A stretch of 24,470 nucleotides of DNA from a virus (Duplodnaviria; Heunggongvirae; Uroviricota; Caudoviricetes), in the IMG/VR virus record IMGVR_UViG_2909272501_000001. One strand, written 5' to 3'. The translations under genes were made by a program, and so were the position numbers. Numbering within the stretch: the first letter of the stretch is position 1; each line of letters opens with the position of its first letter. This document shows positions 537-22,854 of the stretch, one piece after another. The notes beneath the pieces were generated by a model. That model was given only the letters and a program-made list of their open reading frames with translations, made no database searches and was not told where the DNA came from.

Positions 537-556
537 ATGGTGCGATAATAGGAATG
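537..556. repeat. Left copy of an imperfect direct repeat ATGGTGC(C)GATAATAGGA; candidate att core bounding the P4-like element
   Basis: ATGGTGCGATAATAGGAATG here versus ATGGTGCCGATAATAGGAGT at 11862-11881; identical over 17 positions with one 1-nt indel. The two copies bracket the whole P4-like gene set. Confidence 0.5.
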
Positions 557-612
557 AATATTAAAAGTTAAGACATTGATTTATAATAGATTATTATATT
601 CAAAAAATATAA

Positions 613-633
613 CTATACACATATCTATACACA
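613..633. repeat. Two direct copies of the 9-mer CTATACACA (613-621, 625-633); candidate integrase arm-type binding sites
   Basis: Same 9-mer recurs at the other end of the element (11741-11749, and inverted at 11698-11706). Position just inside the putative att core. Confidence 0.3.
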
Positions 634-675
634 CTGCGCGCATCGCTTGTTTTTTACACAATTAAAAGTAAGAAA

Positions 676-972
676 AAAGTTTTTTTTCGAAAGAACTGTT
701 CACACTGTTCACCTTTCTTTTGTCTCCTTTTATTTCAGAGTGATAGGTGGTGAATAATGGGTGAAGGGTGAACATTCGATTCTTCACCTCCGGCATTCTG
801 CCGGTGTGACTCATACCGGTGATTAATCCCCCATACTGAAATCACACAGGGAGAAAAAAAAGTTTTTTTTGATTTGATTGTTCACACTGTTCACCTTTCG
901 TTTTTCTCTTTTAATTTCAGTGTGATAACGGGTGAATACACGGTGAAGGGTGAACAGTGGATTGTTCACCTT
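676..972. repeat. crr-like cis replication region: two ~115-bp direct repeats (period ~182 bp), each with TGTTCACA/TGTTCACC and GGTGAACA-type octamers
   Basis: Octamers at 698-705, 707-714, 767-774, 781-788 and again at 880-887, 889-896, 949-956, 963-970. Lies immediately downstream of the alpha gene, as crr does in P4. TGTTCACC is the alpha-protein binding octamer of P4 (established knowledge). Confidence 0.7.
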
Positions 973-986
973 CGGGGAATTCAGGG

Positions 987-1013
987 ATAAAAAAAGACCG
1001 GCAGATGCCGGTC
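987..1013 (-). terminator. Rho-independent terminator candidate downstream of alpha
   Basis: Perfect 8-bp inverted repeat GACCGGCA/TGCCGGTC (996-1013) followed on the minus strand by a T-run (plus-strand A-run 989-995), 17 nt after the alpha stop. Confidence 0.55.
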
Positions 1014-1029
1014 AGATGAGTCATGATGG

Positions 1030-3363
1030 TCAGGTTGTCGCAGGGTCGTCACATTTTGGCAGCCAGTCGCCGTAGCTTTCCTCTTTCAGCGTCAGGTTGG
1101 TCTGTATCCCCTGTTTGGTATGGCGCTTCTCGTAATTCAGTCCGTATTCCTTCAGCATCACCGGCAGCCCCAGCCCGAACATTTTCAGACTGAGTACATT
1201 CCGGTAGCCGTTTGCCTCCATGTAGGCCAGATAGGCGTGATAGAGGTATTTACGGTAATTGCGCGGGATGATACTGGCGTTCCCCATATACATGCCGCTG
1301 GTCTGCGGCAGGGTTTCCAGATAGCCGATAAAATCAAACGTCGGGTCGGCATCCCGTTTGATGTTCAGCGCCTCGTCTGAGTTCTGCTGGGACTGAAGCA
1401 GTGACCGGGCGAGCATCGGGTCGCTGAACTTCTGCATCAGGTGACGCACGATGACCGCCAGCTCGCGGGTGATTTTGTCCTTAAGCTGCGGGTCGCGCTC
1501 CTGCGGGGCTATCTGTTCCGGGAAGTGAATAATCACCCGCCGGCGTGACACGCCGCCGCTGCGGTCGGTGAAGCGCATCGGGTTATTGTTCACGGCCAGA
1601 ATTACCGCCGGGATATGCGTGGAGTATGCATCCCGGTATTTCGGGTCAACGGACACCGCATCGCCGCCGGTGATGGCCTTGAGTCCGGCACCGTCGCCGC
1701 TCCATTTTTCCTGGTCCGGCAGGCGTATCAGTGAGAAGCCAGTTAACGCGGCACGTTCACGCGGGGATTCCAGCGTCTCGATGGTGGCCGACGTGGCGTT
1801 ATCCTCCCCGGCCAGCAGGGTGGCTATTTCGGCCATGATACTTTTGCCGCTGCCGCCGGGACCGGTCACCTCCAGAAAGAGCTGCCAGTCGTAGCGGTTT
1901 GCCAGCACCATAAACAGTGCGGCCAGAATCACGTCGCGTTTTTCCGCACGACCACCGGCGGCACGGTCAAGCCAGCGCCAGAACGCGGGGGCGTGGGTTT
2001 CCAGCGTTTCCCCTTCCACCGGCGGGGTGAAATCCACATCGCACAGGGTGCGCATCCAGTGTGACGGACTGTGCGGGTGGAACGTGCCGCTCTGCGTGTC
2101 GAGCACGCCGTTACGAAAGCCAATCAGGCGGCGGGAGGGGGCTTCCTGCTGCGGAATAATCAGCTTCAGGGTGTCCACCACGGAGGCCACCTTCCCGGAG
2201 GAGAACGGCGCGCGCAGACGCTGAAACAGCCCGGCCACATCCCGGGCAAAGTCCTGTGGCGGCAGCACCTTCCAGACACCATTTTCATAGCGGGACAGAA
2301 GCTGGCCGTTGGCATCGACCGCGAGCGCCTCGCCGTAATGCTCATAGATACGCATGGCCTTTTCGCTGGTACTCATGGCGGAAAACTCCGCTTCGCTCAT
2401 GGTGTCGAACGGGCTTTCAGCCGGTGGCCGGATGGCATCATAAATGGCCTTACGGGTGGCTTCCCCGCCGTACTGCGTGAAGGCATCATTCCAGTCACCG
2501 AAGACCGGCGGCAGGGCAACAACACCTTCACACGCATCTGCGGCTGCGGCGGCTTTTGTCTGGCCGTCACCGCTGAGGTCACGGTCAGCAGCAAGGACAA
2601 TCTGACAGGCCGGATGCTTCTGCCGGGCAAGGCTGGCCAGAGAAAGGAGGTTCACGGAAGAAAGCGCCACCATCACCGTTTCACCGGTCAGGTGATGCAC
2701 GGTAAGTGCGGTCGCGTATCCCTCCGCTATCCACAGACGTTTTCCGGCCTGATTCTGTCCTTCAAGGGTGTGACAGGTGCCCCTGACCTGTCCGCCTTTC
2801 AGGGTGCGCTTACGGCCGTCAGCGCTGATTAACTGAAGGTTAACCAGTTCGCCGCTGTCGTCATACAGTGGCACCACAAGGTCACCGGCGCACCAGCTCA
2901 CGCCACCGGCTCTGTGTGTGCCGGTCAGCATCCGGCATTCCCGGCCGGGAAAACCCTTGCGGGTCAGGTAGGCGTTACCGGTTCCGGGACGGGTTTTCGC
3001 CATCAGGGTTTGTGCCAGTGCGGCGGCGTTCTTCCGGGCAGCGTCTGTTTCAGCACCGGCGGCGGCCGTCACTGCCGGGTCAGCCGGGGGCAGACAGCCG
3101 GTCACGGCAGCCACCTTTGCGGCCGCGTCGGACGGGGAAACACCAAACACCTTTTCAACTAGTTTCAGGCCGTCACCGGCACCACACTGATTGCAGTACC
3201 AGGTGCCGCGCCCCTCCCTGTCATCAAAACGGAAGCGGTCACTCCCGCCACAGACCGGACAGGGCTGATGACGGTTTTTCAGCACCTGAATCCCCAGCGC
3301 CGGGAGAATACGCGGCCAGTGGCCGAGCGCATGGCTGACGGTGGCGGTTACGTTCATTTTCAT
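1030..3363 (-). CDS. alpha: P4 alpha-type primase-helicase (replication protein)
   Basis: 777-aa ORF, the length I recall for P4 alpha. N-terminal zinc-binding primase motif CPVCGGSDRFRFDD...WYCNQCG, Walker A GPGGSGKS in the C-terminal half. RBS AAGGAGA before the ATG. Flanked by TGTTCACC iterons at both crr-like and ori-like positions. Confidence 0.9.
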   Translation of the reverse strand: MKMNVTATVSHALGHWPRILPALGIQVLKNRHQPCPVCGGSDRFRFDDREGRGTWYCNQCGAGDGLKLVEKVFGVSPSDAAAKVAAVTGCLPPADPAVTAAAGAETDAARKNAAALAQTLMAKTRPGTGNAYLTRKGFPGRECRMLTGTHRAGGVSWCAGDLVVPLYDDSGELVNLQLISADGRKRTLKGGQVRGTCHTLEGQNQAGKRLWIAEGYATALTVHHLTGETVMVALSSVNLLSLASLARQKHPACQIVLAADRDLSGDGQTKAAAAADACEGVVALPPVFGDWNDAFTQYGGEATRKAIYDAIRPPAESPFDTMSEAEFSAMSTSEKAMRIYEHYGEALAVDANGQLLSRYENGVWKVLPPQDFARDVAGLFQRLRAPFSSGKVASVVDTLKLIIPQQEAPSRRLIGFRNGVLDTQSGTFHPHSPSHWMRTLCDVDFTPPVEGETLETHAPAFWRWLDRAAGGRAEKRDVILAALFMVLANRYDWQLFLEVTGPGGSGKSIMAEIATLLAGEDNATSATIETLESPRERAALTGFSLIRLPDQEKWSGDGAGLKAITGGDAVSVDPKYRDAYSTHIPAVILAVNNNPMRFTDRSGGVSRRRVIIHFPEQIAPQERDPQLKDKITRELAVIVRHLMQKFSDPMLARSLLQSQQNSDEALNIKRDADPTFDFIGYLETLPQTSGMYMGNASIIPRNYRKYLYHAYLAYMEANGYRNVLSLKMFGLGLPVMLKEYGLNYEKRHTKQGIQTNLTLKEESYGDWLPKCDDPATT

Positions 3364-3377
3364 GGTGTTGTTCTCCT

Positions 3378-3698
3378 TCAGTGCAGTACCGGCGCTTTTA
3401 TGTGACGGGCACAGAGTTCATCCATCACAACCAGCCCGAGAAAGGACAGCGACGGCGCGGCCTTCAGGGGGCCGGATTCCATTAAATCTTCCAGCAGGGC
3501 ACAGGCTATCTGACGCCCTTTTTCCTCACCGTGCTGGCGCAGATAAAAGCCCTCCAGCTCAGCGGCGATGGCCGCCTCCAGTGACTCAAGGGTGAGATGC
3601 GGGTAGCGGTGCTGACGTTCGCACACGGTCAGCCAGGCACAGGCGACAGCGCGACGGTAAAGGGCAGCGCGTAAGACGGGCGGTAAGGGTGTTTTCAT
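3378..3698 (-). CDS. Hypothetical protein, 106 aa, immediately upstream of alpha (position and length match what I recall as P4 orf106)
   Basis: ORF with RBS GGGAGGA upstream; stop 15 bp before the alpha start; GC-rich backbone codon usage. Confidence 0.5.
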
Positions 3699-3833
3699 TT
3701 GCTTTCCTCCCTGTGACAGATGACTGCATTCCGTGCCGGTTGCATTAACTGATAAGGCATATCTGCGTCTCCTGAAGACGTGCGTATCCCTGCGCGAATA
3801 CGCACATTTAATTTTTCGGGTGTCGTTTTTTAA

Positions 3834-4289
3834 TTACAGATAATTGCGGTAACTGTTATCCGGGGTGGTTTCCGGGTCAGGCTCCGTGCGGGGAATTTCC
3901 CGCCATTCCCGCGCTACCGGTGCTGCCCGGCTGACCGGAACAGTGTCCTGCGGGTAAATATCCAGATATTTCTCCCGCCATTTCTGTAATTCCGGGTCTC
4001 CGGCCATTTCTTTCAGTACCGCATGCCGGTTTACGGGGCTGCGTTTAAACAGGTCAGGACGGTCACAGGTAAATTCCCGCAGAAAACGCCCCAGCGGGAT
4101 GTCTGTGGTGCGTCCGTCAGCGAGGATACGCACAAGGATACTGAATTTACGGCGGTACGGGTTCCAGACAATGTCCGGGCAGCGGTACGGCATTTCCCAC
4201 GGAATACCGTCTTCCAGAATGCCGACCACGGCCACATCGGGAAAACCGGCAGAACGGTAAATCTCACCGGGCTGGGGAAAATCAAACAT
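3834..4289 (-). CDS. Hypothetical protein, 151 aa if started at the internal ATG at 4289 (track ORF extends to 4331)
   Basis: ATG at 4289-4287 overlaps the stop of the upstream 95-aa gene (ATGTTTGA), indicating translational coupling. Length matches what I recall as P4 orf151. Confidence 0.45.
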   Translation of the reverse strand: MFDFPQPGEIYRSAGFPDVAVVGILEDGIPWEMPYRCPDIVWNPYRRKFSILVRILADGRTTDIPLGRFLREFTCDRPDLFKRSPVNRHAVLKEMAGDPELQKWREKYLDIYPQDTVPVSRAAPVAREWREIPRTEPDPETTPDNSYRNYL

Positions 4290-4569
4290 GCGTCCTGTCT
4301 CCCCGGTCTTTCTGCTGGGCGAGAAAATCACGGCACAGGCCTTTGGCTTTCAGCTCATTCAGCACAAAATCAATATCCTCATTCAGGTAGCTGAAAATAT
4401 GCGGAATGTAGAGCTGATGCAGGCCGGAGAGTTCACGGTGAATCAAATCACCCCCAACAAACTGGGATACGGCGCTGGCGCGGTTGAGCTTATGGTAAGC
4501 CTCAATGCTGAGGTGTTCACGGGCGTCATGACGCGCTGAGACGGTCTGAGGGGCTTTTTTATTACGCAC
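4282..4569 (-). CDS. Hypothetical small protein, 95 aa, GTG start; possibly the epsilon-equivalent of the P4 left operon
   Basis: ORF in operon context. GTG start overlaps the stop of the upstream ORF (GTGCGTAA). The epsilon assignment rests only on length and order, not on recognised sequence. Confidence 0.45.
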
Positions 4570-5161
4570 GGGACACCCCCATCACCGGCAGACGGGCAGC
4601 AAGGGAGAGCACATAGTCACGGACAAGGGAACGGCGGGCACTGCGTTCATCACCGGCGACGGTGCGAAGCATGCAGATACGGGGATGACGGTCTGCGCGA
4701 CGGACAGCCGCAAACACAAAGACAAATTCAGGGTGTGAAGGGGTAAGGGTCGTAGCCATAAGGCAACCTCCGATAACAGCATAAATGACGCTATCGCCGG
4801 AGTTTCCACGCTCGATGGCGATAGCCCAGACGGGGGTGGAAATACCGGCGTTATCGGAAACCGGCCAGCCCGGAGGCTGCCCCGCCTGAGCTACCATTGA
4901 CTCTGCGGTATAATGAGCGGACGCGGGCAGAATGCACGGAGTGCCATTTGCTCGACTGACCACACACCACACCATAATCTGGCGCTCTGTGGCGTTGATT
5001 GCGACACAAAAAAAGACGCATGGCGCGTCATATGTCGCCGATAACATACTCGGGTTTCCACGCCCGGCTGCCGATTTTGCGGCAGCGGAAAAACTATATC
5101 CGCAAATGCCGGAAAAAGGCAAGCCAGAAAAAGGGAGTTTTTGCAGAGCGGGCATCATCAT
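4562..5161 (-). CDS. Uncertain ORF (199 aa from the internal Met; 214 aa on the track) covering the position where P4 carries its kil/eta/cI immunity region
   Basis: Open frame whose stop overlaps the next gene's start, but the translation is low-complexity and several other frames are also open in this GC-rich stretch. May be a misread of small genes and/or an RNA locus. Confidence 0.2.
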
Positions 5162-5424
5162 GCGTCGTACCCCCGTTTGCGTCCGGCAATGCGTCCGGCC
5201 ATCCATGCGGTGACTTCAGAGTGCAGCCAGGCCACATTTTTACCGCCAAGACTCACCTGCGGCGGAAATTCCCCCTTACGGATGAGTTCGTAGATGGTCG
5301 AGCGTGACAGGCCGCACAGGTGCATCACTTCCGGAAGACGCAAAAAACGCTCCTGTGTGATGTCCGGCAGCGGCATCAGTGGCGTCACAGGGGCAGGAGA
5401 CGGGGAAGAAAAAACAGCTTGCAT
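5158..5424 (-). CDS. AlpA/Vis-like small DNA-binding regulator (88 aa)
   Basis: Motif ...[29 protein letters not shown]... is typical of the AlpA/excisionase-like HTH family. RBS GAGG 8 nt upstream of the ATG at 5424. Same position and length as what I recall as P4 orf88 (vis). Confidence 0.65.
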
Positions 5425-5702
5425 CGGGCTACCTCGTTAATGTCCATACAGCACCGGATAAGTCCGTCCGGCTTCGGGTAGCGCTTTATTTTGTGAATAT
5501 TTTTGGCAGACGCAACAGGGGGGATTTGTTCCGGCAGCCTTACAATGGCTGTGTGTTTTTTGCACATCAGCGCCAGATAGCTTTAAAACGCTCTGGAAGG
5601 AGCTGGAAAAAATTATAGTGAAATACAAATTGTTTTTTCTTATTTATTTCAGTTAATTAATAAAAATAAAAAGTAATAAACAGCACAAAAAGTCCATGAA
5701 CG

Positions 5703-5806
5703 GGTGAACAGTGGTGAACAGACGGTGAACAGTCATTACTGCGATTGTTCACCCTTTAACTTACTGTATTACTTATCTTTTTTCTTATGGTGAACAGAGG
5801 TGAACA
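5703..5806. repeat. ori-like iteron cluster: six copies of GGTGAACA/TGTTCACC
   Basis: Octamers at 5703-5710, 5713-5720, 5724-5731, 5746-5753 (inverted), 5789-5796, 5799-5806, inside an AT-rich intergenic region ~4.8 kb from the crr-like repeats. P4 ori1 lies about 4.5 kb from crr and carries the same octamer (established knowledge). Confidence 0.65.
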
Positions 5807-5885
5807 GTAAAATATAAAAAAACAAACAGTAAGCCGGTTTTTCCTGCGACCTTTTCCTGGCTTGCCGGTCTGAGGATGAGTCTCC

Positions 5886-5903
5886 TGTGTCAGGGCTGGC
5901 ACA
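5886..5903 (+). promoter_or_regulatory. TGT-N12-ACA dyad; candidate Ogr/Delta-type activator site of the late promoter upstream of sid
   Basis: TGT (5886-5888), 12 nt, ACA (5901-5903), located ~75-90 bp upstream of the sid ATG. P2/P4 late promoters carry this dyad upstream of the -35 region (established knowledge). Confidence 0.4.
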
Positions 5904-5975
5904 TCTGCAATGCGTCGTGTTGTTGTCCGGTGTACGTCACAATTTTCTCAACCTGAAGTGACGAGGAGCCGGAAA

Positions 5976-6710
5976 ATGTCTGACAACACCATCCCTGAAT
6001 ATCTGCAACCCGCACTGGCACAACTGGAAAAGGCCAGAGCCGCCCACCTTGAGAACGCCCGCCTGATGGATGAGACCGTCACGGCCATTGAACGGGCAGA
6101 GCAGGAAAAAAATGCGCTGACGCAGGCCGACGGAAACGACGCTGACGACTGGCGCACGGCCTTTCGTGCAGCCGGTGGTGTCCTGAGCGACGAGCTGAAA
6201 CAGCGCCACATTGAGCGCGTGGCACGCCGGGAGCTGGTACAGGAATATGACAATCTGGCCGTGGTGCTGAATTTTGAACGCGAACGCCTGAAAGGGGCGT
6301 GTGACAGCACGGCCACCGCCTACCGGAAGGCACATCATCACCTTCTGAGTCTGTATGCAGAGCATGAGCTGGAACACGCCCTGAATGAAACCTGTGAGGC
6401 GCTTGTCCGGGCAATGCATCTGAGCATTCTGGTACAGGAAAATCCGCTCGCCAACACCACCGGGCATCAGGGCTACGTCGCACCCGATAAAGCTGTCATG
6501 CAGCAGGTGAAATCATCGCTGGAACAGAAAATAAAACAGATGCAAATCAGCCTCACCGGCGAGCCGGTTCTCCGGCTGACCGGACTGTCAGCGGCAACAC
6601 TTCCGCACATGGATTATGAGGTGGCAGGCACACCGGCACAGCGCAAGGTGTGGCAGGACAAAATAGACCAGCAGGGAGCAGAGCTTAAGGCCAGAGGACT
6701 GCTGTCATGA
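5976..6710 (+). CDS. sid: Sid, capsid size determination (external scaffold) protein
   Basis: 244 aa from the ATG at 5976 preceded by RBS GAGGAG (track ORF starts earlier at 5910). Length matches recalled P4 Sid. Followed by delta and psu in P4 order. Stop overlaps the delta start (ATGA). Confidence 0.85.
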   Translation: MSDNTIPEYLQPALAQLEKARAAHLENARLMDETVTAIERAEQEKNALTQADGNDADDWRTAFRAAGGVLSDELKQRHIERVARRELVQEYDNLAVVLNFERERLKGACDSTATAYRKAHHHLLSLYAEHELEHALNETCEALVRAMHLSILVQENPLANTTGHQGYVAPDKAVMQQVKSSLEQKIKQMQISLTGEPVLRLTGLSAATLPHMDYEVAGTPAQRKVWQDKIDQQGAELKARGLLS

Positions 6711-7207
6711 TTTACTGCCCGTCGTGTGGACATGTTGCTCACACCCGTCGCGCACATTTCATGGACGATGGCACCAAGATAATGATTGCACAGTGCCGGA
6801 ATATTTATTGCTCTGCGACATTTGAAGCGAGTGAAAGCTTTTTCTCTGACTGTAAAGATTCAGGAATGGAATACATTTCAGGCAAACAGAGATACCGCGA
6901 TTCACTGACGTCAGCCTCCGGCAGTATGAAACGCCCGAAAAGAATGCTTGTTACCGGATATTGTTGTCGGAGATGTAAAGGCCTTGCACTGTCAAGAACA
7001 TCGCGGCGTCTGTCTCAGGAAGTCACCGAGCGTTTTTATGTGTGCACGGATCCGGGCTGTGGTCTGGTGTTTAAAACGCTTCAGACCATCAACCGCTTCA
7101 TTGTCCGCCCGGTCACGCCGGACGAACTGGCAGAAAGCCTGCATGAAAAACAGGAACTGCCGCCAGTACGCTTAAAAACACAATCATATTCGCTGCGTCT
7201 GGAATGA
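6707..7207 (+). CDS. delta: Delta, Ogr-family zinc-finger late transcription activator (tandem Ogr-like domains)
   Basis: 166 aa. Two Cys4 Ogr-type motifs: CPSCGH...CRNIYCSATF and CCRRCKG...CTDPGCGLVF. Confidence 0.85.
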   Translation: MIYCPSCGHVAHTRRAHFMDDGTKIMIAQCRNIYCSATFEASESFFSDCKDSGMEYISGKQRYRDSLTSASGSMKRPKRMLVTGYCCRRCKGLALSRTSRRLSQEVTERFYVCTDPGCGLVFKTLQTINRFIVRPVTPDELAESLHEKQELPPVRLKTQSYSLRLE

Positions 7208-7280
7208 GGGCTGCCGGTTAACACCGGCCGTCGCCGCACACCGTATTTTTATTCTTCAGCATGATGAGAAAGAGATAACG

Positions 7281-7853
7281 ATGGAAAGCACAGCCTTACA
7301 GCAGGCCTTTGACACCTGTCAGAATAACAAAGCAGCATGGCTGCAACGCAAAAATGAGCTGGCAGCGGCCAAACAGGAATATCTGCGGCTTCTGTCAGGA
7401 GAAGGCAGAAACGTCAGCCGCCTGGACGAATTACGCAATATTATCGAAGTCAGAAAATGGCAGGTGAATCAGGCCGCCGGTCGTTATATTCGTTCGCATG
7501 AAGCCGTTCAGCACATCAGCATCCGCGACCGGCTGAATGATTTTATGCAGCAGCACGGCACAGCACTGGCGGCGGCACTGGCACCGGAGCTGATGGGCTA
7601 CAGTGAGCTGACGGCCATTGCCCGAAACTGTGCCATACAGCGTGCCACAGATGCCCTGCGTGAAGCCCTTCTGTCCTGGCTTGCGAAGGGGGAAAAAATT
7701 AATTATTCCGCACAGGATAGCGACATTTTAACGACCATCGGATTCAGGCCTGACGCGGCTTCGGTGGATGACAGCCGTGAAAAATTCACCCCTGCGCAGA
7801 ACATGATTTTTTCGCGTAAAAGTGCGCAACTGGCATCACGTCAGTCTGTGTAA
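7281..7853 (+). CDS. psu: Psu, polarity suppression / capsid decoration protein
   Basis: 190 aa, N-terminus MESTALQQAFDTCQNNKAAWLQRKNELAAA..., last gene of the sid-delta-psu operon. Confidence 0.85.
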   Translation: MESTALQQAFDTCQNNKAAWLQRKNELAAAKQEYLRLLSGEGRNVSRLDELRNIIEVRKWQVNQAAGRYIRSHEAVQHISIRDRLNDFMQQHGTALAAALAPELMGYSELTAIARNCAIQRATDALREALLSWLAKGEKINYSAQDSDILTTIGFRPDAASVDDSREKFTPAQNMIFSRKSAQLASRQSV

Positions 7854-7888
7854 AATTCCCCGAAAATCCGCCCGTTTTTACTGAAAAA

Positions 7889-7972
7889 AGCCATGCATCG
7901 ATAAGGTGCATGGCTTTGCATGCGTTTCCCTGCCTCATTTTCTGCAGACCGCGCCATTCCCGGCGCGGTCTG
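7889..7972 (+). other. Two strong hairpins after psu (7889-7915, 9-bp stem; 7945-7972, 11-bp perfect stem); possible terminator and/or packaging-region structure
   Basis: AGCCATGCA...TGCATGGCT and CAGACCGCGCC...GGCGCGGTCTG inverted repeats. Only the first is followed by a weak T-rich tract. Confidence 0.3.
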
Positions 7973-8017
7973 AGCGTGTCAGTGCAACTGCATTAAAACC
8001 GCCCCGCAAAGCGGGCG

Positions 8018-8036
8018 GGCGTGGCGGGGGGAGCAT
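8018..8036. other. cos-like site (candidate cohesive-end sequence)
   Basis: GGCGTGGCGGGGGGAGCAT matches 15 of 19 positions of the P2/P4 cohesive end as I recall it (GGCGAGGCGGGGAAAGCAC). It sits right after psu, where cos lies in P4, next to a GC-rich imperfect palindrome (7999-8019). Confidence 0.35.
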
Positions 8037-8118
8037 TGCGCGCTAAGGCTGATATTATAATTTTCTTTAATTCTATTTGGTATTTTGGCTTTATTCGTCA
8101 GAAGGAACGTTTAGAAAT

Positions 8119-8146
8119 AGACCACTACAATGGATTGTAGCGGTCT
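8119..8146 (-). terminator. Hairpin terminator candidate ending the int-RT-partner operon
   Basis: 12-bp inverted repeat AGACCACTACAA/TTGTAGCGGTCT (one G-U-compatible mismatch), 4-nt loop, ~10 nt downstream of the partner gene stop, followed by a modest T-rich tract on the minus strand. Confidence 0.4.
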
Positions 8147-8155
8147 GCATGATAT

Positions 8156-8896
8156 CTAGCGTTGCATTTCAGTTACTATGAAATTTTCTTCTGTAATAGA
8201 ATTCATTATCTCAAAGTACAATTCTTCAGGTTGAATAAACGCCAACTCTTTGCAAAGGTTGACAATGGTATCACTATAAGTGATACCCATCCGAGGATTG
8301 AAAAGCTCAAATCTCTTGATGTTTCTTTTGTTTTTTGAGTAAAAGTTTAAAGTGAAATATATTAGCACCTGTCTAAGATCGTAAACACTAAACTTCCTAT
8401 CTCCTGATTTTATTTCCACAAGAACATTTGAATAATAAATATCGCCATATGAATTATTTATTACTCCGCATCCATCGAATTGTGGAGACACTTCAATTTG
8501 GTTTTCCATTCCATATCGAGACAAAATGTTTCTTGCTATTTCCCTTATGGCATTGTACTCAACCATGCTTAAGGGTAGCTTGAAGTTAGAACCGTAAGCG
8601 AACCGCTGTAGATATTCTTTTGTTTTTTCAAAAACAACCTGAAAATCAGCATTATGGAAGATATCATGTGCTGAAAGAATATTTCTGTCTAACGAATCAT
8701 TCTGTATTGCCCTATATAAATTAAATGCGCACTCATTAACAAAGACGTTATTTGACCTATTAGCGCAGTCATCTAGAGGAGGATAAACGTCCTCGATGAG
8801 ACTGCCGTTAATGATGCGTATGAAATTATTAGCATTTGGAAGCAATTGATTCCAAAATGAAGTGAATTTTCGAGAAAACGTTAATTCAGATATCAT
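8156..8896 (-). CDS. Hypothetical 246-aa protein, partner of the reverse transcriptase; possible nuclease-like effector
   Basis: ATG overlaps the RT stop (ATGA at 8893-8896), with RBS GAGGA inside the RT 3' end. Very AT-rich. Segment GDIYYSNVLVEIKSG could be a D...ExK (PD-(D/E)xK-like) core, but this is unverified. Confidence 0.75.
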   Translation of the reverse strand: MISELTFSRKFTSFWNQLLPNANNFIRIINGSLIEDVYPPLDDCANRSNNVFVNECAFNLYRAIQNDSLDRNILSAHDIFHNADFQVVFEKTKEYLQRFAYGSNFKLPLSMVEYNAIREIARNILSRYGMENQIEVSPQFDGCGVINNSYGDIYYSNVLVEIKSGDRKFSVYDLRQVLIYFTLNFYSKNKRNIKRFELFNPRMGITYSDTIVNLCKELAFIQPEELYFEIMNSITEENFIVTEMQR

Positions 8897-10521
8897 AGCG
8901 CATCCTCAAGATTTCTTGCGGTATGCCTTTTACTTGCCCAATCCCTGTAAATCACCTCTACAAAGTTGAATGTTTTCTTATTATGCTCTCTCCAGTGCCG
9001 TCCTTCATCACCTAAGATGTAACTGGAAACGATCAATAGTCTTCTCTGCAACGGATGCATTGCAGAGAAATTTTTTTTGATATCAGAAAGCCATGCGTAA
9101 GAATTAATTTTTGCCATTGACTGTGTAACTATGTTCTTGACTAAGATGCTTTCTGGATTGTTATTGTATATTTCACTAAGGATTAGGGTGGATTTTTCTG
9201 AATTTTCTTTTGAGAGCATTCGGGCTACATAGGCTAAGTTGAGCTCAGTACTCAAAATATATGAATCTTGTTTAATTAGTGCAGTTATTTTATCAAGAAT
9301 AATATCTTTGGTTTCTGTGCTTAATTTTTGCCAGTTGGAGTTAGCTACTTGAATTATAGTTGTAAATATTGGATATAACTCATGCAAGTTATTAAACATT
9401 ACTTTGAAAGCACTACTTATTATTTCATCTGATGTTGCTGAGAATGCCTTTATCAAATGCTTGCTAAAAGATTGGTTAATTTTTGATTTTTGTAACTCAC
9501 TACTCAGCATAGCTAACAAGTCAAAATCTTTTAAAGATTCCTTTATCTCTTCATATTCCTCTATCGCATTTGCTGAGTAAGGATCGAATCTTATAGGAAG
9601 ACTCATAAATTTAGCCTTCATAGGAGATTCTTCATCTTCATCATTACCATGCAACTTAGCTTTAGTTACTGAAAGGAACTCTTCTTTAGTAACAATATTG
9701 GTTTTTTGTTTCTGTAAAGTTAGCCCTTCATTTTCCATCAGTTTTTTACTAAGCAAAGTTAAAATCTTATGAGCATCCTCTCTAGAGTTACAAAAAATAA
9801 CAAAGTCGTCGACATAACGCTTATAGTTGATTCTATTCATAGACAATAATTTATCAATAGAATCTAGAGCTAGTTCTGCTAATATTCTAGAGGCAGGACA
9901 TCCAACTGGTACTCCATATGATTTTGTTTCACTAAATGTCTGTAGTAATTTCTTGATTTTCCCAGAGTAATCTTTATTGGGGTCGACTCTATCTAACGCA
10001 TTTTCTAAACGGTGGTGATAAATACGCGGATAGAAATCTGCTATATCGCATGTAAGTACATACTTTATTTCATCGTTAGAACATTCAGAGATACTGTCTT
10101 CTTGATATTTTCTCCAAGAGATCTCTTTATCAAAAAGAGAACCATCAGCAAGGTTTGGTTTAAAGCGATATGAATAAACCTGCGTTTTAGTAGATCTATT
10201 CCTTTCAATATCATCAGCGATTTTTAAAACTAACCCAAGAAAAAAAGCATTCCAGAATGGATCAATTTGGGTCGCCCACCTGTAACCATAATAACCAATA
10301 CTTGAAAAGCTATTAATTATGTTTGGTGGAATCTCGATCCTTTTATTTTCAAAGTCATTAAATGTTTGCATTAATGCAGTTTTTACTTTCTCCTTATCAT
10401 CTTCAAATAACCGACTTTCAAATGGGTAAGGGAAAATATCTGTATCGCCGTGCTTTATAATATTTTCCAATGCAAGCTCAAAGCAATTTTCTAGTTTACT
10501 ACTATCAAACTCGTTACTCAT
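8893..10521 (-). CDS. Reverse transcriptase, 542 aa, with ~230-aa alpha-helical C-terminal extension; UG/Abi-like defence-associated RT candidate
   Basis: RT motifs in canonical order: LTCDIADFYPRIYHHRL (motif A-like), SYGVPVGCPASRILAELAL (motif B'-like), KRYVDDFVIF (YVDD catalytic motif C), NEGLTLQKQKTNIV (motif D/E-like). RBS AAGGAGA; start overlaps the int stop by 8 nt. No retron-type VTG motif seen. Confidence 0.85.
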   Translation of the reverse strand: MSNEFDSSKLENCFELALENIIKHGDTDIFPYPFESRLFEDDKEKVKTALMQTFNDFENKRIEIPPNIINSFSSIGYYGYRWATQIDPFWNAFFLGLVLKIADDIERNRSTKTQVYSYRFKPNLADGSLFDKEISWRKYQEDSISECSNDEIKYVLTCDIADFYPRIYHHRLENALDRVDPNKDYSGKIKKLLQTFSETKSYGVPVGCPASRILAELALDSIDKLLSMNRINYKRYVDDFVIFCNSREDAHKILTLLSKKLMENEGLTLQKQKTNIVTKEEFLSVTKAKLHGNDEDEESPMKAKFMSLPIRFDPYSANAIEEYEEIKESLKDFDLLAMLSSELQKSKINQSFSKHLIKAFSATSDEIISSAFKVMFNNLHELYPIFTTIIQVANSNWQKLSTETKDIILDKITALIKQDSYILSTELNLAYVARMLSKENSEKSTLILSEIYNNNPESILVKNIVTQSMAKINSYAWLSDIKKNFSAMHPLQRRLLIVSSYILGDEGRHWREHNKKTFNFVEVIYRDWASKRHTARNLEDAL

Positions 10522-11698
10522 TCACATTCTCCTTAATAAAAATATAATCTGAATACCACTGCATCATATCACGGCGTTTATCAATATATTGAGCATGATT
10601 ATACGTACCTCTAATATTATTCTTATCTATATGAGCAAGCTGTATTTCTATCCAAGCCGAATCATATCCTTTTTCGTGGAGGATAGTAGATAAGGAATGT
10701 CGAAATCCATGACCAGTAAGTTTTCCACCATAACCAATACGCTTGATAACTTGGTTAATACTCGCCTCACTCATAGGCTTGTTCGGATCGTTCCGCCCCG
10801 GAAAAACATAACTATACTTCCCTGTCATCATCTTGAGTTCATTTAGCAAATCTAACGCTTGAGTCGACAAAGGCACAAGGTGTGATCTGCGCATTTTCAT
10901 CCTTTCAGCAGGAATTTCCCAAATAGCGTTATCTAAATCAAATTCTGACCATAATGCCGCACGTAATTCGATGGTTCTAACACCTGTAATCATGAGCAAT
11001 TTCGTGGCAATCAGGACAAGCCGACTTCCGGTATATCCGTTTAAGGCGCGAAGAAAATCAGGTATCTCATTAGCCTTTAAGAACGGGAAATGATTTGATT
11101 GGTGTACATTGAGGGCGCTTGAAAGATCCGCAGCAGGGTTAAACTCAGCCCTTCCAGTAGCAATGGCATAGCGGAAAACTTCTGAGCATCGCTGCCGAAC
11201 TTTGCGCATTTTTTCTAATGCACCGCGCTTTTCGATTTTACGCAGCACATTAAGCAGTTCTAGCGGTTTAATCTCTCCCACTGGCCTTGTTCCCACATAA
11301 GGAAAAATGTCGTTCTTAAACGCTTCCATGATGTCTGATGCATATCCCGCCGACCATTTGGTAGACTTCTGTTGATGCCACTCTCTGGCTATCTTTTCGA
11401 AGGCGTTCTCTGACTCTGTTTGCAGAGCCAGCTTTTGCTCTTTTCGAACCTCACTAGGGTTCTTTCCTTCTGCCACAAGTTTTCGAGCTTCATCACGACG
11501 GGAACGAGCATCAGCAAGAGTGATCGTTGGGTAAACACCAAGCGAGATCATTTTGGGTTTACCGGCATAGCGATAACGAAATCGCCAGCTTTTACTTCCA
11601 TTTGGCTCTACAAGTAAAGACAACCCTTGCCCATCCCCAAGTGTATAGGCTTTAGCTTCAGGTTTAGCACGGCGAATCTGCATATCATTTAGGGGCAT
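10514..11698 (-). CDS. int: P4-type (DUF4102-family) tyrosine integrase
   Basis: 394 aa. N-terminal ...RRAKPEAKAYTLGDGQGLSLLVEPNGSKSWRFRYRYAGKPKMISLGVYP... is characteristic of P4/CP4-57-type integrases. Catalytic R...HxxR...H...Y residues (GVRTIEL, GHGFRHSLS, LAHIDKN..RGTYNHAQY). Confidence 0.88.
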   Translation of the reverse strand: MPLNDMQIRRAKPEAKAYTLGDGQGLSLLVEPNGSKSWRFRYRYAGKPKMISLGVYPTITLADARSRRDEARKLVAEGKNPSEVRKEQKLALQTESENAFEKIAREWHQQKSTKWSAGYASDIMEAFKNDIFPYVGTRPVGEIKPLELLNVLRKIEKRGALEKMRKVRQRCSEVFRYAIATGRAEFNPAADLSSALNVHQSNHFPFLKANEIPDFLRALNGYTGSRLVLIATKLLMITGVRTIELRAALWSEFDLDNAIWEIPAERMKMRRSHLVPLSTQALDLLNELKMMTGKYSYVFPGRNDPNKPMSEASINQVIKRIGYGGKLTGHGFRHSLSTILHEKGYDSAWIEIQLAHIDKNNIRGTYNHAQYIDKRRDMMQWYSDYIFIKENVNE

Positions 11699-11749
11699 GT
11701 GTATAGAATTCCAAAATCGAACAGGAACATATACATAATCCTATACACA
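11698..11749. repeat. Arm-type 9-mers near the int start: TGTGTATAG (11698-11706, inverted) and CTATACACA (11741-11749)
   Basis: Same 9-mer as at 613-633; the first copy overlaps the int start codon. Confidence 0.3.
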
Positions 11750-11861
11750 TTTAGTACTGGATTCTACTGGAAAGTTATGGACTAATACGAACAGTAAAAA
11801 CAAAAAATCTTTTATAAAACAGTGCGGTTATGGATAAATACGGATGTTTGAAGAAGTGGAG

Positions 11862-11881
11862 ATGGTGCCGATAATAGGAGT
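11862..11881. repeat. Right copy of the imperfect direct repeat; candidate att core shared by both elements
   Basis: ATGGTGCCGATAATAGGAGT, see 537-556. The first 9 nt (TGGTGCCGA) resemble the reverse complement of a tRNA 3' end, but no T-arm follows. Confidence 0.5.
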
Positions 11882-12023
11882 AAAACACTCGATTAATCTC
11901 GTGTTAATGCCATCACCTACGACCATTACTAATTGATTGAATCTGATAGAAAAATTATCATTTTCTATACCTTACAATCAATTTACACATTACAAACGCT
12001 CCGACACTTTAGCCGGAGATTTT

Positions 12024-13301
12024 ATGAGATACAAGCCTAACCAATACTTAATCTGTGATTCTTACGGTAACTACTATTTAAGGATCACGCTGCCTGTGTA
12101 TATGCAGCCCTTTTTTGAAGGAAAAAGGACGTTTGTCAGAAGTCTACACACAAGTAATCTTCGTGTGGCACGTCGAAAGCGTGATCAGATTGCAGATGAA
12201 TACCATTGCTTACGGGAGAGTGTTGCCCCTGTAAACAGCACAATAGAAAACACGCTGGAACTGTTACGCAGTAAGGCTAAATACGCCAAAACAGCTACCA
12301 GAATGCAAGATACAGCGTCTTCGTGTCCGTCATTGCTTAAAATTCTTGAAATCTACCTGACAATTAACAGCACGAAGAAGAAGCCAGCCACTTTAGCTAA
12401 GGCAAGAAAAGCGGTAGAGATGTTTCTCTCCTACCGTAAAAAGCCTGATATTGCATTGCAAGATGTAAGCCGCACCACTGTTACAGGCTGGATTGAACAC
12501 ATGCAAAAAACCCTTTCACAACAATCAATTGCAAATTATATCAGCCCAATGGTCCAGCTATGGGAGTTAGCTTCATCACGTTACCACGATGCGCCAGAAA
12601 GGGCGCTCTCCCCCTGGCGAGGGCATAGGCTTGATGTGGCACAAAGTAGAGAGAGCTACGAGGCATTTTCTAACAAAGAGCTATTGCAGGTGTTGCAAGT
12701 ATTTTCCGGTGATTCAGCAGAAAACAAAGAAATGACGGCTTTGTGTCTTATCGGTTTATATACAGGTATGCGGATCAATGAGATAGCAAGTATCACAATA
12801 GACGATGTGAAAGAGATCGAAGGTGTGCTGTGTTTTGAAATCACACAGGGAAAAACGAAAGCTGCGGCACGTCTTGTGCCTGTGCATAACCTTATCACTC
12901 CGTTGGTGTTGTCGCTGCGTGAAAAGCCTCACAATGGCTTTTTGTTCTATCACGCCAGCATTACAGAACGTGCTGACGGTAAACGCTCTACGTGGCATAC
13001 ACAACGATTTACAAGAGCTAAACGAAAGGCTTTAGGGGAAAAGGGAACAGAAAGGAAAGTGTTTCATTCTCTGAGACACGGAGTAGCACAGCTTCTTGAT
13101 CGAAATCAAATTCCAGAAGACAGGATCGCCCTTCTCCTGGGCCATACACGCGGCAATACAGAAACATTCCGCACATATAGCAAGAATGCAGCTTCTCCAG
13201 TAGAGCTTAAAAAATATATTGAGCTTTTACGCTACCCTGAAATAGAGAAAGGCTTATCAATCAATAAAAAATCAAATTTAAGGCGTAAAACAACGCCATA
13301 G
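12024..13301 (+). CDS. Second tyrosine recombinase/integrase (425 aa from the ATG at 12024; track ORF begins at a TTG at 11937)
   Basis: Catalytic signature GMRINEI (R), FHSLRHGVAQ (HxxR), LLGHT (H), TYSKN (Y). RBS GGAG 5 nt before the ATG. AT-rich. Confidence 0.75.
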   Translation: MRYKPNQYLICDSYGNYYLRITLPVYMQPFFEGKRTFVRSLHTSNLRVARRKRDQIADEYHCLRESVAPVNSTIENTLELLRSKAKYAKTATRMQDTASSCPSLLKILEIYLTINSTKKKPATLAKARKAVEMFLSYRKKPDIALQDVSRTTVTGWIEHMQKTLSQQSIANYISPMVQLWELASSRYHDAPERALSPWRGHRLDVAQSRESYEAFSNKELLQVLQVFSGDSAENKEMTALCLIGLYTGMRINEIASITIDDVKEIEGVLCFEITQGKTKAAARLVPVHNLITPLVLSLREKPHNGFLFYHASITERADGKRSTWHTQRFTRAKRKALGEKGTERKVFHSLRHGVAQLLDRNQIPEDRIALLLGHTRGNTETFRTYSKNAASPVELKKYIELLRYPEIEKGLSINKKSNLRRKTTP

Positions 13302-13381: not shown

Positions 13382-14059
13382 CTATTGTTTAAATACTGGC
13401 GTTACAACGTCTTGCCCTGGGCTTTTTTGATTTTTCTGTTCTGTTGTATTTACCTGCATTTTAACCTGTCCCCCTACAGATTTATTTGGTGCTGTTTTTA
13501 CAGCAATAGCATTAGTGGTGGCCTTAGAGACAAGACGAATTTGCTCAAAATCAAGAGTAAACAATAAGCTTTCGCTTGCTTCTTCTTCGTAAGACATGCC
13601 AACTAACACAACGTTGTCATAATTTTTTAACTCAGTGACAAGTAGGAAAGGTTGGCGACTGTCCATCAACTGATTTAGGTATTCAAGCATAAGCATACGT
13701 CGATTGCCGTTAATTCCCGCATTCTTAATCATATCGGGATTGAGTTTCAATACGGTTTCAGAGATACGCCCCTGTAATGTGAACTTGTTATTCCGTATTT
13801 GAACATGATCACTAACTTCTGATCCTGATTCGACGGCATAGCTTGTAACGTCTGCATTTCGGCTAACTTTCGTCGATTCCACGTTATCAAATGATAATGC
13901 CCGGTAGTCATTGTAAGCAGCATTTGCACCACTGCCGAGGTTAGAGGTAATAATCGCAAAGCCGTTACCCCCTTTAGTTGTTCTACCGTTGCTATCGTTG
14001 CTTGTGCTGTTGATTTTCGCCTCAGTCGGGCGACCAATGGTTAACGGACCCATTGCCAT
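13382..14059 (-). CDS. Hypothetical protein, 225 aa (possible virion-associated protein)
   Basis: ORF with RBS AAGGA; last gene of a co-oriented leftward block that includes capsid-like candidates. No recognisable motif. Confidence 0.45.
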   Translation of the reverse strand: MAMGPLTIGRPTEAKINSTSNDSNGRTTKGGNGFAIITSNLGSGANAAYNDYRALSFDNVESTKVSRNADVTSYAVESGSEVSDHVQIRNNKFTLQGRISETVLKLNPDMIKNAGINGNRRMLMLEYLNQLMDSRQPFLLVTELKNYDNVVLVGMSYEEEASESLLFTLDFEQIRLVSKATTNAIAVKTAPNKSVGGQVKMQVNTTEQKNQKSPGQDVVTPVFKQ

Positions 14060-20026: not shown

Positions 20027-20596
20027 TTAAAAGGGTAGTGAATCATATATTGTGCTCTCACTTTTGAGATCAATTATCAAAGAGTCAAAATCATTTTCAC
20101 AAAGATAGATATTCTTTGAATCTAATGCTCGTTTTACAAAATCTTCTGTTTCTTCGTGCGGTGGTTTCTTCTTATCAAGGGAAAGAAGCCAAGTAAAAAT
20201 TTCGGGCCGCTCAGGGAACTCTGGCTCTTGTGTTTCTTCTTCAACGATGATTTCGGAAACATTCAATATTTCATTAGATTCGTCTTCTTTCTCAGAAGGA
20301 TCAGGTAGTGATGATTCTCCTTTTGGAATATCAAGCACTCGATAAAGGTTAGAGCTTCCTGGTCGTGCATCTTTTATAATTAATCCCATTTCGAGCAATT
20401 TCTTAACCCTTTCTTCTGCTGCTCTTGGTGTTATGCCAAAAACATCGCCTATCTTAGCGTAAGAGGGAAATGCACGATCAAACCCTCTCAGATAGCAGTA
20501 AAGGTTTTTAGCACTATCTGTAAATTTATGCCCGTTTACTTGGCTTATTTTTAGAATCCACATAGGAACTTTTACAAATTGTTCTTCATTAATCAT
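20027..20596 (-). CDS. Winged-helix DNA-binding protein, 189 aa from the ATG at 20596; replication initiator / replisome-organiser-like candidate
   Basis: RBS AAGGAGA 5 nt before the ATG. Segment NLYCYLRGFDRAFPSYAKIGDVFGITPRAAEERVKKLLEMGLIIK resembles wHTH initiator N-domains. Acidic C-terminal half. Same operon as an RHH protein and downstream of the iteron cluster. Confidence 0.5.
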   Translation of the reverse strand: MINEEQFVKVPMWILKISQVNGHKFTDSAKNLYCYLRGFDRAFPSYAKIGDVFGITPRAAEERVKKLLEMGLIIKDARPGSSNLYRVLDIPKGESSLPDPSEKEDESNEILNVSEIIVEEETQEPEFPERPEIFTWLLSLDKKKPPHEETEDFVKRALDSKNIYLCENDFDSLIIDLKSESTIYDSLPF

Positions 20597-20649
20597 TAAA
20601 AATCTCCTTGATGTAATCACGCTCTACGGCGCTACTATGGTGATAAAAA

Positions 20650-21040: not shown

Positions 21041-21883
21041 TAATTAACCTCCTATTCTATTTAGTTAAAAGAAATAGACACCTTGCAAGCCTTGGGCTTC
21101 AAAGTGCGATGCATTGGTTTAATTATTTAAAGGATAAGAATGTTTTCCTGCCCCTAATATTACTTTACCACGACTAAAGGCTTTTGTCAACCCCCCAGCC
21201 ATAAAAATATTGATCATTTTCAGTGTGTTATGATTTTTCTTAGCAATTCGTGCTCTTACGAATACTCCAATTCTTCATTATTGTCTAAAACGCTCTAAAA
21301 CGCGTTCTAACGAGGTTTTGATAAAAACAATACATTCCCTTATGTAATGGCTGTTTAGCTCGCCTACGGTTTGATTTAAGCGGTAGAAACTCATCTACTA
21401 CCTAACATCTTTAAACCATATTTTTCTTTTTTGTCTGTTTGATGGTTGATCTATAGTTATGCGTTAGCATCCCCAAAGGGGTAACGCTACCCTAATTGCA
21501 TTCGCAAGAACATTGCACAAGAAATTTATTTTAGATGATTGATGATCGTTAGATGGTAGTTAGTTAATTATCGTTCTGCGCACAGCGCAAGACTATTTAG
21601 CCTTACGCAAGCCGTAGGCTATTTGCACATAGTAGATTACATATTCGTTGTGAGCGGAAAGCGAACATAGATCTACTAACTAACATTAACAAACAAAAAC
21701 TATGTGTTATGAGAAGTATCAGTCTAACTGACTAACACTCTAACTTGTGCAAGGTTCTGGCGAATGCCAATAGATTAAGGGATAGTCGAAGACTCCCTAA
21801 CGGGTATCCCTATAATTATTCTTTAAAGATAAAAGAATTTATAAAAGATAATTTAATTGTAGTTTGATAGTTGATCTAATAGG

Positions 21884-22021
21884 TAACAAAATTCTGTAGG
21901 GGTGGCTAACAGTTTTCTGTGGGGGTGTCTAACATAATTCTGTTAGGGTTGGGGTAACAGTTTTCTGTTAGGGTGCATATTTCTTTAAAAGTTAAGGATA
22001 ACAGAATTCTGTGGGGGTAGC
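21884..22021. repeat. Iteron cluster: five ~23-bp direct repeats, consensus TAACA(n)3TTCTGT(n)GGGGT
   Basis: Copies begin at 21884, 21907, 21930, 21955 (tandem, 23-25 bp spacing) and 21999 (after an AT-rich spacer), upstream of the operon containing the RHH and wHTH genes. Confidence 0.6.
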
Positions 22022-22854
22022 TCACAGTGACCTACCGTTACATCCATCACATAACATCTGTGCAATGATCTTCTTATAATCAGTAAAAGTCTTTCTTGCT
22101 ATCAAAAATTAAACATCTAAAACAAGCTTAAATTCAAGATTAATTGATGATTAATCCCTGTGTAATTCCATACTAAAAAATCCAAGAAAAATGGCTTCAA
22201 AATGCAATTCTTACTTTCTTCACTTTTGCGTCATCATCAGCAAAGCCTTATGTTATGCGGCATATAGCGCATCACTGCAAAATTGTTGCTCAATAAACGT
22301 TCTATCATTTGTTGAACAAGTTCTTTCACGTGTTGAAAATTTATGTTTAAATTTGCTTTCAATCTTTAATGTGCAATCACTATCAACATAAAAATAAAAA
22401 ATCTTCTATTATATTTCATAGCATACAAAAGTCAATAGAAGCCCTCTCGTGCTCCTACGTAAAAAATCCACCATTTTTCCCCTGATACATCAACTCAAGG
22501 CGTTCTATGTGTTCCTTAGTGCATATTACGATTATTATGTTAAATGTATTTTGGCCTATATTTTGACCTGCACCCGCATAAACACTGGTTTCATCGCTTA
22601 CAGCCCTTGTGAGACGTGGTGCTGTTTCTAGCATCTGATCCGACATAAAACCGATCATTCTCGTGTTTAGTGAAAGTTTAGTGAGAGACATTACAGAAAG
22701 GCTTTCTGTGTAATGATTTAATAGGTAAAAACGATGTTGATTACGCAAGAAAATTCCTTGCTGATATTTGGGGATTCTGGATTTTCCAGATCGGGGGGCG
22801 CTGAAAATCGCGTTAAGCACCTCTCGCAATCTAGCCATAAGGGAGGGGATTCAT

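Follow-up and report, generated by a model that had tools for sequence, protein, structure and literature searches.

Nonanucleotide repeats at both ends of a thrW-inserted P4-like satellite are probable arm-type sites of its own integrase

The nonanucleotide CTATACACA, which recurs at both ends of a P4-like satellite within the 24,470-nt stretch of viral DNA analysed here (hereafter, the window), most probably represents the arm-type binding site of the heterobivalent, P4-family tyrosine integrase that the satellite itself encodes; we assign this reading a probability of roughly 85%. The first-pass annotation of the window had proposed arm-type integrase sites split between the two ends of the element, and this proposal was supported by five independent lines of computational evidence, namely the N-terminal domain of the integrase, the layout of the phage P4 attachment site, conservation footprints, covariation of the repeated word with the N-terminal domain, and the ruling out of the Vis protein as its reader. 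Judged from sequence comparison, the sites appear to correspond, in position and in function, to the attP arm repeats that have been known in P4 since 1987, and they have a word of their own. The 9-mers are, in this sense, an ordinary and expected feature of a known kind, and they reveal no new mechanism.

The element (approximately 545–11870) is a P4-like satellite inserted at a 3' fragment of tRNA-Thr (thrW). It encodes an alpha-type primase-helicase (1030–3363), an Ash/cI-region protein, a Vis homologue, a sid-like ORF, delta, psu, and a tyrosine integrase. Pfam matches were obtained for the alpha domains, Ogr_Delta, Psu, Ash, and the integrase, and the order of alpha, crr, vis, sid, delta, psu, and int is the same as in P4. 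The main features of the element and its right-hand neighbourhood are as follows.

10514..11698, minus strand: int, P4-type tyrosine integrase of 394 aa, with Pfam arm, central, and catalytic domains; 39% identical to P4 Int
5158..5424, minus strand: vis (excisionase/regulator) homologue, with 87 of 88 residues (99%) identical to P4 ORF88/Vis
673..975, plus strand: crr-like pair of 121-nt direct repeats with TGTTCACC iterons, found by repeat search (81% identity); equivalent to P4 crr (4291–4590)
11866..11884, minus strand: int-proximal core copy, TGGTGCCGATAATAGGAGT, a 19-nt 3' fragment of tRNA-Thr(CGU)
540..556, minus strand: distal core copy, host TGGTG plus an element-borne half, with a 1-nt deletion relative to the copy at 11866–11884
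11937..13301, plus strand: second, unrelated tyrosine integrase (DUF6538, SAM_5, and catalytic domains) of another island
13382..14059, minus strand: Dit-like tail protein gene

Host homology (paoD side, LysR pseudogene) ended at approximately 553, and element homology ended at approximately 11881. The int-proximal core could be aligned with the 3' end of thrW in the empty site of Escherichia coli IAI1, where the LysR-fragment/thrW site is uninterrupted. E. coli O104:H4 (H46) was dropped as an empty site because it carries a third kind of integrase in place of the P4-like element, and IAI1 was used instead. The distal core copy showed the same 1-nt deletion (TATC-GCACCA, compared with tRNA-Thr) in all seven elements for which a distal end was available (the window, L003, L010, L012, L021, L023, and L062), which indicates that this half of the core is element-borne and that strand exchange would be limited to approximately (A)TGGTG(C), the extreme 3' end of the tRNA. 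A tRNA search of the 24,470 nt found no intact tRNA, and the same int adjoins an intact tRNA-Thr in several genomes and many genera. Since the right-hand core is only a 19-nt fragment and is followed by the second integrase, these are tandem islands stacked at thrW.

The AT-rich right-hand island also contained an iteron-like array (21881–22026) of four to five copies of a 20–31-nt unit (TAACAGAATTCTGTGGGGGT-like), located near an HTH_36-containing ORF (20027–20620, minus strand). This array may be the replication origin or an operator array of the second element. Regarding distribution, the int-att sequence of the satellite was present in approximately 170 of 5,426 complete E. coli genomes, and relatives were found in many enterobacterial genera. 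This enterobacterial int-att module, beside the thrW core and with 87–89% protein identity, was additionally observed in contigs of a Lachnospiraceae MAG and a Bacteroides MAG (L013 and L018); it is almost certainly a binning contaminant and does not reflect a real host range.

Four exact copies of CTATACACA were found on the two strands of the window, and no further ones, against an expectation of 0.11 copies from dinucleotide-preserving shuffles; none of 100 shuffles reached four. All of the copies listed in the first-pass annotation, that is, a direct pair at the left end and two copies at the right end, one of them inverted over the int ATG, were located, and the count of four exact copies stood, although a fifth, degenerate site at 11729–11737 had been overlooked. 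The resulting set of sites, together with one doubtful match, is listed below, with the corresponding P4 coordinates.

11698..11706, minus strand: arm-type site A, exact 9-mer, inverted, adjoining the int start codon (CTATACAC-ATG)
11729..11737, plus strand: arm-type site B, ATATACATA, degenerate partner of C at a distance of 12 bp; P4 homologue 3942–3953
11741..11749, plus strand: arm-type site C, exact 9-mer, core-side member of the int-proximal pair; P4 homologue 3954–3965
613..621, plus strand: arm-type site D, exact 9-mer, first of the crr-side (int-distal) pair; P4 homologue 4151–4162
625..633, plus strand: arm-type site E, exact 9-mer, second of the distal pair, 12 bp from D; P4 homologue 4163–4174
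11640..11648, minus strand: near-copy CTATACACt within int (codons A-Y-T-L of the arm-binding domain), one mismatch; doubtful site

The word is unrelated to the core TGGTGCCGATAATAGGAGT and lies on both sides of it, with A–C at 116–159 nt and D–E at 56–68 nt. The individual distances (56 and 68 nt for the left copies; 116 and 159 nt for the right copies) agree with the spacing of about 60–160 bp from an att-like core that had been noted earlier. The int ATG at 11698 takes its A from the last base of site A, which gives CTATACAC-ATG on the minus strand. Site B has two mismatches in the window, and a form with one mismatch, TGTGTATAT, is located at −39 in most relatives, which indicates that both ends of the element have a tandem pair spaced by 12 bp. 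The left pair is situated 39 nt from the crr-like repeats, which bound the distal arm. A one-mismatch search of the window added scattered matches and the match at 11640–11648 within int. The latter was considered as a sixth arm site and set aside; relatives differ there at a third codon base (ACA/ACG), and this codon-like pattern of variation suggests that the match is probably a coding coincidence. An int-internal repeat is annotated in P4 as well (3621–32), but it occupies another position than the near-copy and is without a clear counterpart in the window. A literature search for CTATACACA or its complement returned primer sequences alone.

The arrangement of these sites can be compared directly with that of P4, for which the GenBank record NC_001609 contains features annotated as "attP arm sequence repeat". 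These comprise an inverted repeat (3915–3926) adjoining the conserved int ATG, a tandem pair with a 12-bp period (3942–3953 and 3954–3965), and, beyond the core (4078–4097), a second tandem pair (4151–4162 and 4163–4174), with crr beginning at 4291. PMC7286903 cites Pierson and Kahn (1987, J Mol Biol 196:487) for the P4 arm repeats, and a literature search for open descriptions of them gave nothing specific. When the ends of the window's element are joined through the core, its sites match the P4 arrangement site for site in order and orientation, including the inverted copy at the int ATG and the 12-bp tandem period. The gaps between the proximal pair and the core were 112 and 116 nt in P4 and the window, respectively, and those between the core and the distal pair were 53 and 56 nt, so that the distances to the core agree within 4 nt. 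The corresponding gaps between site A and the tandem pair were 15 and 22 nt, and those between the distal pair and crr were 116 and 39 nt. In contrast, the word itself is ATGCCCCCAA in P4 and CTATACACA in the window. The target of P4, tRNA-Leu (leuX), also differs from the tRNA-Thr(CGU) of the window element.

A similar organization is well known for lambda Int, whose N-terminal domain binds arm sites (P1, P2, and P'1–P'3) that are distinct from the core and flank it in attP; integration distributes these sites over attL and attR, and arm and core specificity are separable modules (PMC2951348 gives a general description of this heterobivalent paradigm). The window element differs from lambda in that its arm-binding domain belongs to another Pfam family (PF13356) and in the number, orientation, and spacing of the sites. 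Unlike in lambda, int is transcribed away from the adjacent junction, and the arm would consequently overlap the int promoter.

Conservation of the sites was assessed among relatives obtained by scanning one genome per species with the Int protein. Relatives spanning about 25 genera retained the sites and the distances between them amid divergent flanks. For the int-proximal arm, 25 relatives (Int 76–96% identical), from genera including Kluyvera, Enterobacter, Raoultella, Klebsiella, Serratia, Cedecea, Erwinia, Citrobacter, Edwardsiella, Kosakonia, Leclercia, and Rouxiella, bear the word at −51, −39, and −8 from the ATG. Site C, which corresponds to −51 relative to the int ATG, was found at −51/−50 in 23 of the 25 close relatives, and site A was found at −8 in nearly all of them; at the position of site A, P4 and other clades bear their own word. 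Across 26 sequences from many genera, conservation was 0.967 in the site columns and 0.860 in the other non-coding columns. Because conservation extends over all of the last 80 bp before int (0.92 outside the sites), the proximal footprint is weak when taken by itself, and recent horizontal spread of a single element may account for many of the relatives.

The distal arm was much more discriminating. Among the seven elements, 17 of the 18 site columns were invariant, compared with 29 of the 124 columns elsewhere (Fisher p = 6e-9), and identity outside the sites was 0.60. Site D, for example, was invariant in all seven elements with a visible distal end, between flanks that were approximately 60% identical, and the gap between the distal pair and the core copy was exactly 58 nt in every case. 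We regard this distal-arm footprint as decisive. Moreover, in 1.449 Mb of related enterobacterial loci, 67 exact copies of CTATACACA were located at att arms and 6 elsewhere (2 of which were distal-arm copies), with 11–12 expected by chance. Within this sample, then, the 9-mer does not simply occur at background frequency, the outcome that had been named at the outset as refuting the proposal. The distal tandem pairs of the elements combining a tRNA-Gly(CCC) target with the word CTATACAC (Gly/TATACAC) and of most other clades were not located within the 10-kb flanks; thus, the two-arm architecture was verified for the thrW clade, P4, and probably L059 (Yersinia pestis) only.

The conserved block before int could alternatively mean that the repeats are operator or promoter elements (Pint and the 5' leader) read by RNA polymerase or a host regulator, with the left pair being unrelated or serving crr. 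In P4, a promoter scan detected TTGAAA-18-CATAAT on the int strand, with the −10 hexamer at the junction of the tandem arm repeats, and the homologous place in the window also carries a −10-like hexamer on the tandem pair, as part of the following feature.

11738..11766, minus strand: weak promoter-like block TAGAAT-17-TAGGAT, aligned by eye to the P4 site, with a putative −10 overlapping B and C

This block matches the consensus at 7 of 12 positions, which is below the scan threshold. Upstream of int, the consensus scan called nothing on the minus strand of the window, and the assignment of this putative promoter therefore rests on homology to the P4 site. A purely promoter-based explanation leaves unexplained why an identical, equally spaced, and invariant pair exists approximately 11 kb away across the core, where nothing is transcribed from it, and why each Int N-terminal clade brings a different word into an unchanged layout. 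We therefore consider it very unlikely as a substitute for the arm-site reading; a promoter role and Int binding of the repeats are, in any case, compatible with each other.

Indeed, repression of int by its own product has a precedent in P4, where both Int and Vis repress int and Int acts by binding DNA directly, close to where transcription starts (as summarized in PMC2951348, citing Piazzolla 2006). Given this precedent, int autoregulation is a plausible and reasonable expectation for the window element, and the tandem pair B/C is at least as likely to be the operator as the ATG-abutting site A. The window element may be comparable to the IntS/TorI system of KplE1, in which the int-proximal att junction contains the int promoter and binding at arm sites can repress int; P4 is described in that paper as similar in behaviour (Panis et al. 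2010, PMC2951348). KplE1 differs in integrase lineage, site sequence, and recombination directionality factor (RDF), and its regulation was demonstrated by mutagenesis, whereas that of the window element is deduced from its layout.

The identity of the protein that reads the 9-mer was considered further with respect to Vis. P4 Vis reportedly binds two boxes between int and the core, and direct repeats spaced by roughly one helical turn are common among the RDF sites of other phages; both points would fit repeats serving as sites of Vis, as an RDF, or of another satellite regulator. However, the window's Vis is identical to that of P4 at 87 of 88 residues, yet the word is wholly different (CTATACACA versus ATGCCCCCAA), which argues that the 9-mer is not a Vis box. 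The word instead tracks the N-terminal domain of Int, and a better candidate for Vis is provided by separate repeats in the interval between arm and core.

11775..11791 and 11828..11844, between arm and core: two 17-nt direct repeats, TTATGGAyWAATACGrA, read from the sequence

These repeats are identical at 14 of 17 positions and lie 53 nt apart. GTCC(R)/ATCC motifs occur approximately six times between arm and core, and they are also present in the same interval of P4 (L082, 3966–4077) and in the relatives. Considering the 99% identity of Vis in the two elements, the repeats at 11775–11844 are candidate Vis/RDF (excisionase) boxes, and a role of the 9-mer as a Vis or other regulator site appears highly improbable.

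The proximity of the left pair to the crr iterons (39 nt) also raises the question of whether the 9-mers are weak DnaA boxes or replication sites linked to the adjacent crr/ori-like repeats. Against the relaxed DnaA-box consensus TTWTNCACA, CTATACACA matches at eight of nine positions; however, every site and every relative has the mismatching C at the first position, where the consensus requires T. The words found at the corresponding positions of P4 and other clades (ATGCCCCCAA, TACCCCCA, and others) are not DnaA-like, those of the other clades being C-rich, three of the five sites are located at the int promoter, far from crr, and P4 replication is driven by the alpha protein acting on TGTTCACC iterons. 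A replication role for the 9-mers is accordingly highly improbable.

The arm-site reading assigns recognition of the word to the N-terminal domain of the integrase, which was identified as follows.

11435..11692, minus strand: Arm-DNA-bind_3 domain (Pfam PF13356, E = 9e-28), int codons 3–88, proposed reader of the 9-mer

The remainder of Int matched PF22022 (aa 100–195) and PF00589 (aa 206–370). The solved structures of this domain family in the PDB (3ju0 and 3jtz/3rmp) are all DNA-free. More distant P4-type integrases (approximately 60% identity) keep the scaffold of an ATG-abutting word and an inverted tandem pair upstream, and their words are TGCCCCCA, TACCCCCA, GGCCCCCA, GTGCCCCC, or again CTATACAC. 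Clustering of the first 90 Int residues sorted the loci by word. The word was found to be independent of the target, since CTATACAC occurs with three targets, tRNA-Thr(CGU), tRNA-Arg(CCU), and tRNA-Gly(CCC), while elements at tRNA-Gly(CCC) bear either CTATACAC or TACCCCCA. Pairwise identities were mosaic: those between the Gly/TATACAC and Gly/TACCCCC integrases were 0.49, 0.82, and 0.78 for the N-terminal, core-binding, and catalytic domains, respectively, whereas those between the Gly/TATACAC and Thr/TATACAC (window group) integrases were 0.67, 0.58, and 0.62. The word thus goes with the N-terminal domain, and the tRNA target goes with the remaining parts of Int; such covariation irrespective of target is what a heterobivalent integrase would predict. 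The residues that part the TATACAC clades from the C-rich clades are T19 versus K, S27 versus Y/F, S/G37 versus Y, and F40-R41 versus L/M-K. They cluster in the predicted beta-sheet of the N-terminal domain, and we infer that they may be the specificity determinants.

No Shine-Dalgarno sequence is present in any clade whose word abuts the ATG. The tRNA-Sec-associated P4-type integrases (L031, L035, L042, L044, L050, and others) form one N-terminal clade without the ATG-abutting word; they have a Shine-Dalgarno sequence, GGAGGATG, at the ATG, and TTGGGGGTAT-like words are located further upstream. These two kinds of clade hint at two regimes of int translation control.

A broader interpretation is that arm recognition constitutes a swappable module, with at least four to five words (CTATACAC, ATGCCCCC, TACCCCC, GGCCCCC, and GTGCCCC) placed in a fixed attP scaffold, that the words act as an orthogonality code, that DRT8 expression is tied to the arm sites, and that identifiable residues encode the word. 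Taken jointly, these propositions are tentative, and we consider it somewhat doubtful that all of them hold. Individually, each word may be paired with its own N-terminal clade and shuffled onto other core-binding and catalytic modules; integrases that share a tRNA may have orthogonal arms; and a few beta-sheet residues (T19/K, S27/Y, S37/Y, and F40-R41/M-K) may encode the word. The modular code relating arm word and N-terminal domain, including the natural swaps, is the sole mildly new part of the present findings.

The sequences directly show the sites with their layout, their conservation, their match to the N-terminal domain clades, and their positional homology with P4; from these we derive the following course of recombination, in which physical binding, intasome geometry, the position of the int promoter, and autoregulation are inferred. 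In the excised circle, the ends would be joined via the tRNA-Thr core into one attP of approximately 280 bp, with the order int ATG, A (inverted), 22 nt, B and C, 116 nt, core, 56 nt, D and E, 39 nt, and crr. The N-terminal Arm-DNA-bind_3 domain of Int (aa 3–88) would read the 9-mer, and the central and catalytic domains would read the core. Int protomers would bridge the arms and the core, presumably with bending proteins and Vis, to form an intasome. Integration would split the sites, with A–C passing to the int-proximal junction and D–E to the distal junction, so that excision would need both junctions. Int occupancy of the sites would probably repress int as well, given that B and C overlap the −10 of the likely promoter and that A lies between this promoter and the ATG.

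Downstream of int, between psu and int, the satellite carries a defence operon, in a region that is described as a defence hotspot of P4-like satellites in PMC9122126.

8156..10521, minus strand: DRT8 defence operon identified by PADLOC, comprising the RT (8893–10521) and its PDDEXK partner (8156–8896)

The PADLOC E-values were 4.9e-166 for Drt8 and 5.5e-69 for RTasPDDEXK. The RT ATG (10521) overlaps the int stop codon (10514–16) by 8 nt, with AAGGAG located inside int, and the int-RT junction was identical in 103 E. coli genomes. No terminator-like site was predicted between int and RT, and a GC-rich terminator-like hairpin (8018–7999) follows the DRT8 operon. The overlap and the lack of a predicted terminator between the two genes make co-transcription, and hence coupling of int and DRT8, possible; an internal promoter for the RT is possible instead. 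Separately, the last 40–80 nt of int were observed to co-vary with the DRT8 cargo across E. coli genomes, suggesting a boundary of cargo exchange within the 3' end of int.

Overall, the sites define what would be a full functional attP, together with attL and attR, for a widespread thrW-targeting P4-like satellite carrying DRT8, and they would be useful for predicting which prophage remnants are still able to excise. The arm words would also explain how tandem islands with a common tRNA core are resolved individually, because an intasome would assemble only at junctions with matching arm words. If the interpretation of a swappable arm module is true, an orthogonality code would allow several islands to share a single tRNA, or to stack there, without cross-excision, as for the thrW islands of the window, and the ATG-abutting site combined with the int-RT overlap could tie expression of the DRT8 cargo to Int occupancy. 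The natural pairs of N-terminal domain and arm word, including the mosaics, may serve as a resource to decipher or engineer the arm specificity of the PF13356 family.
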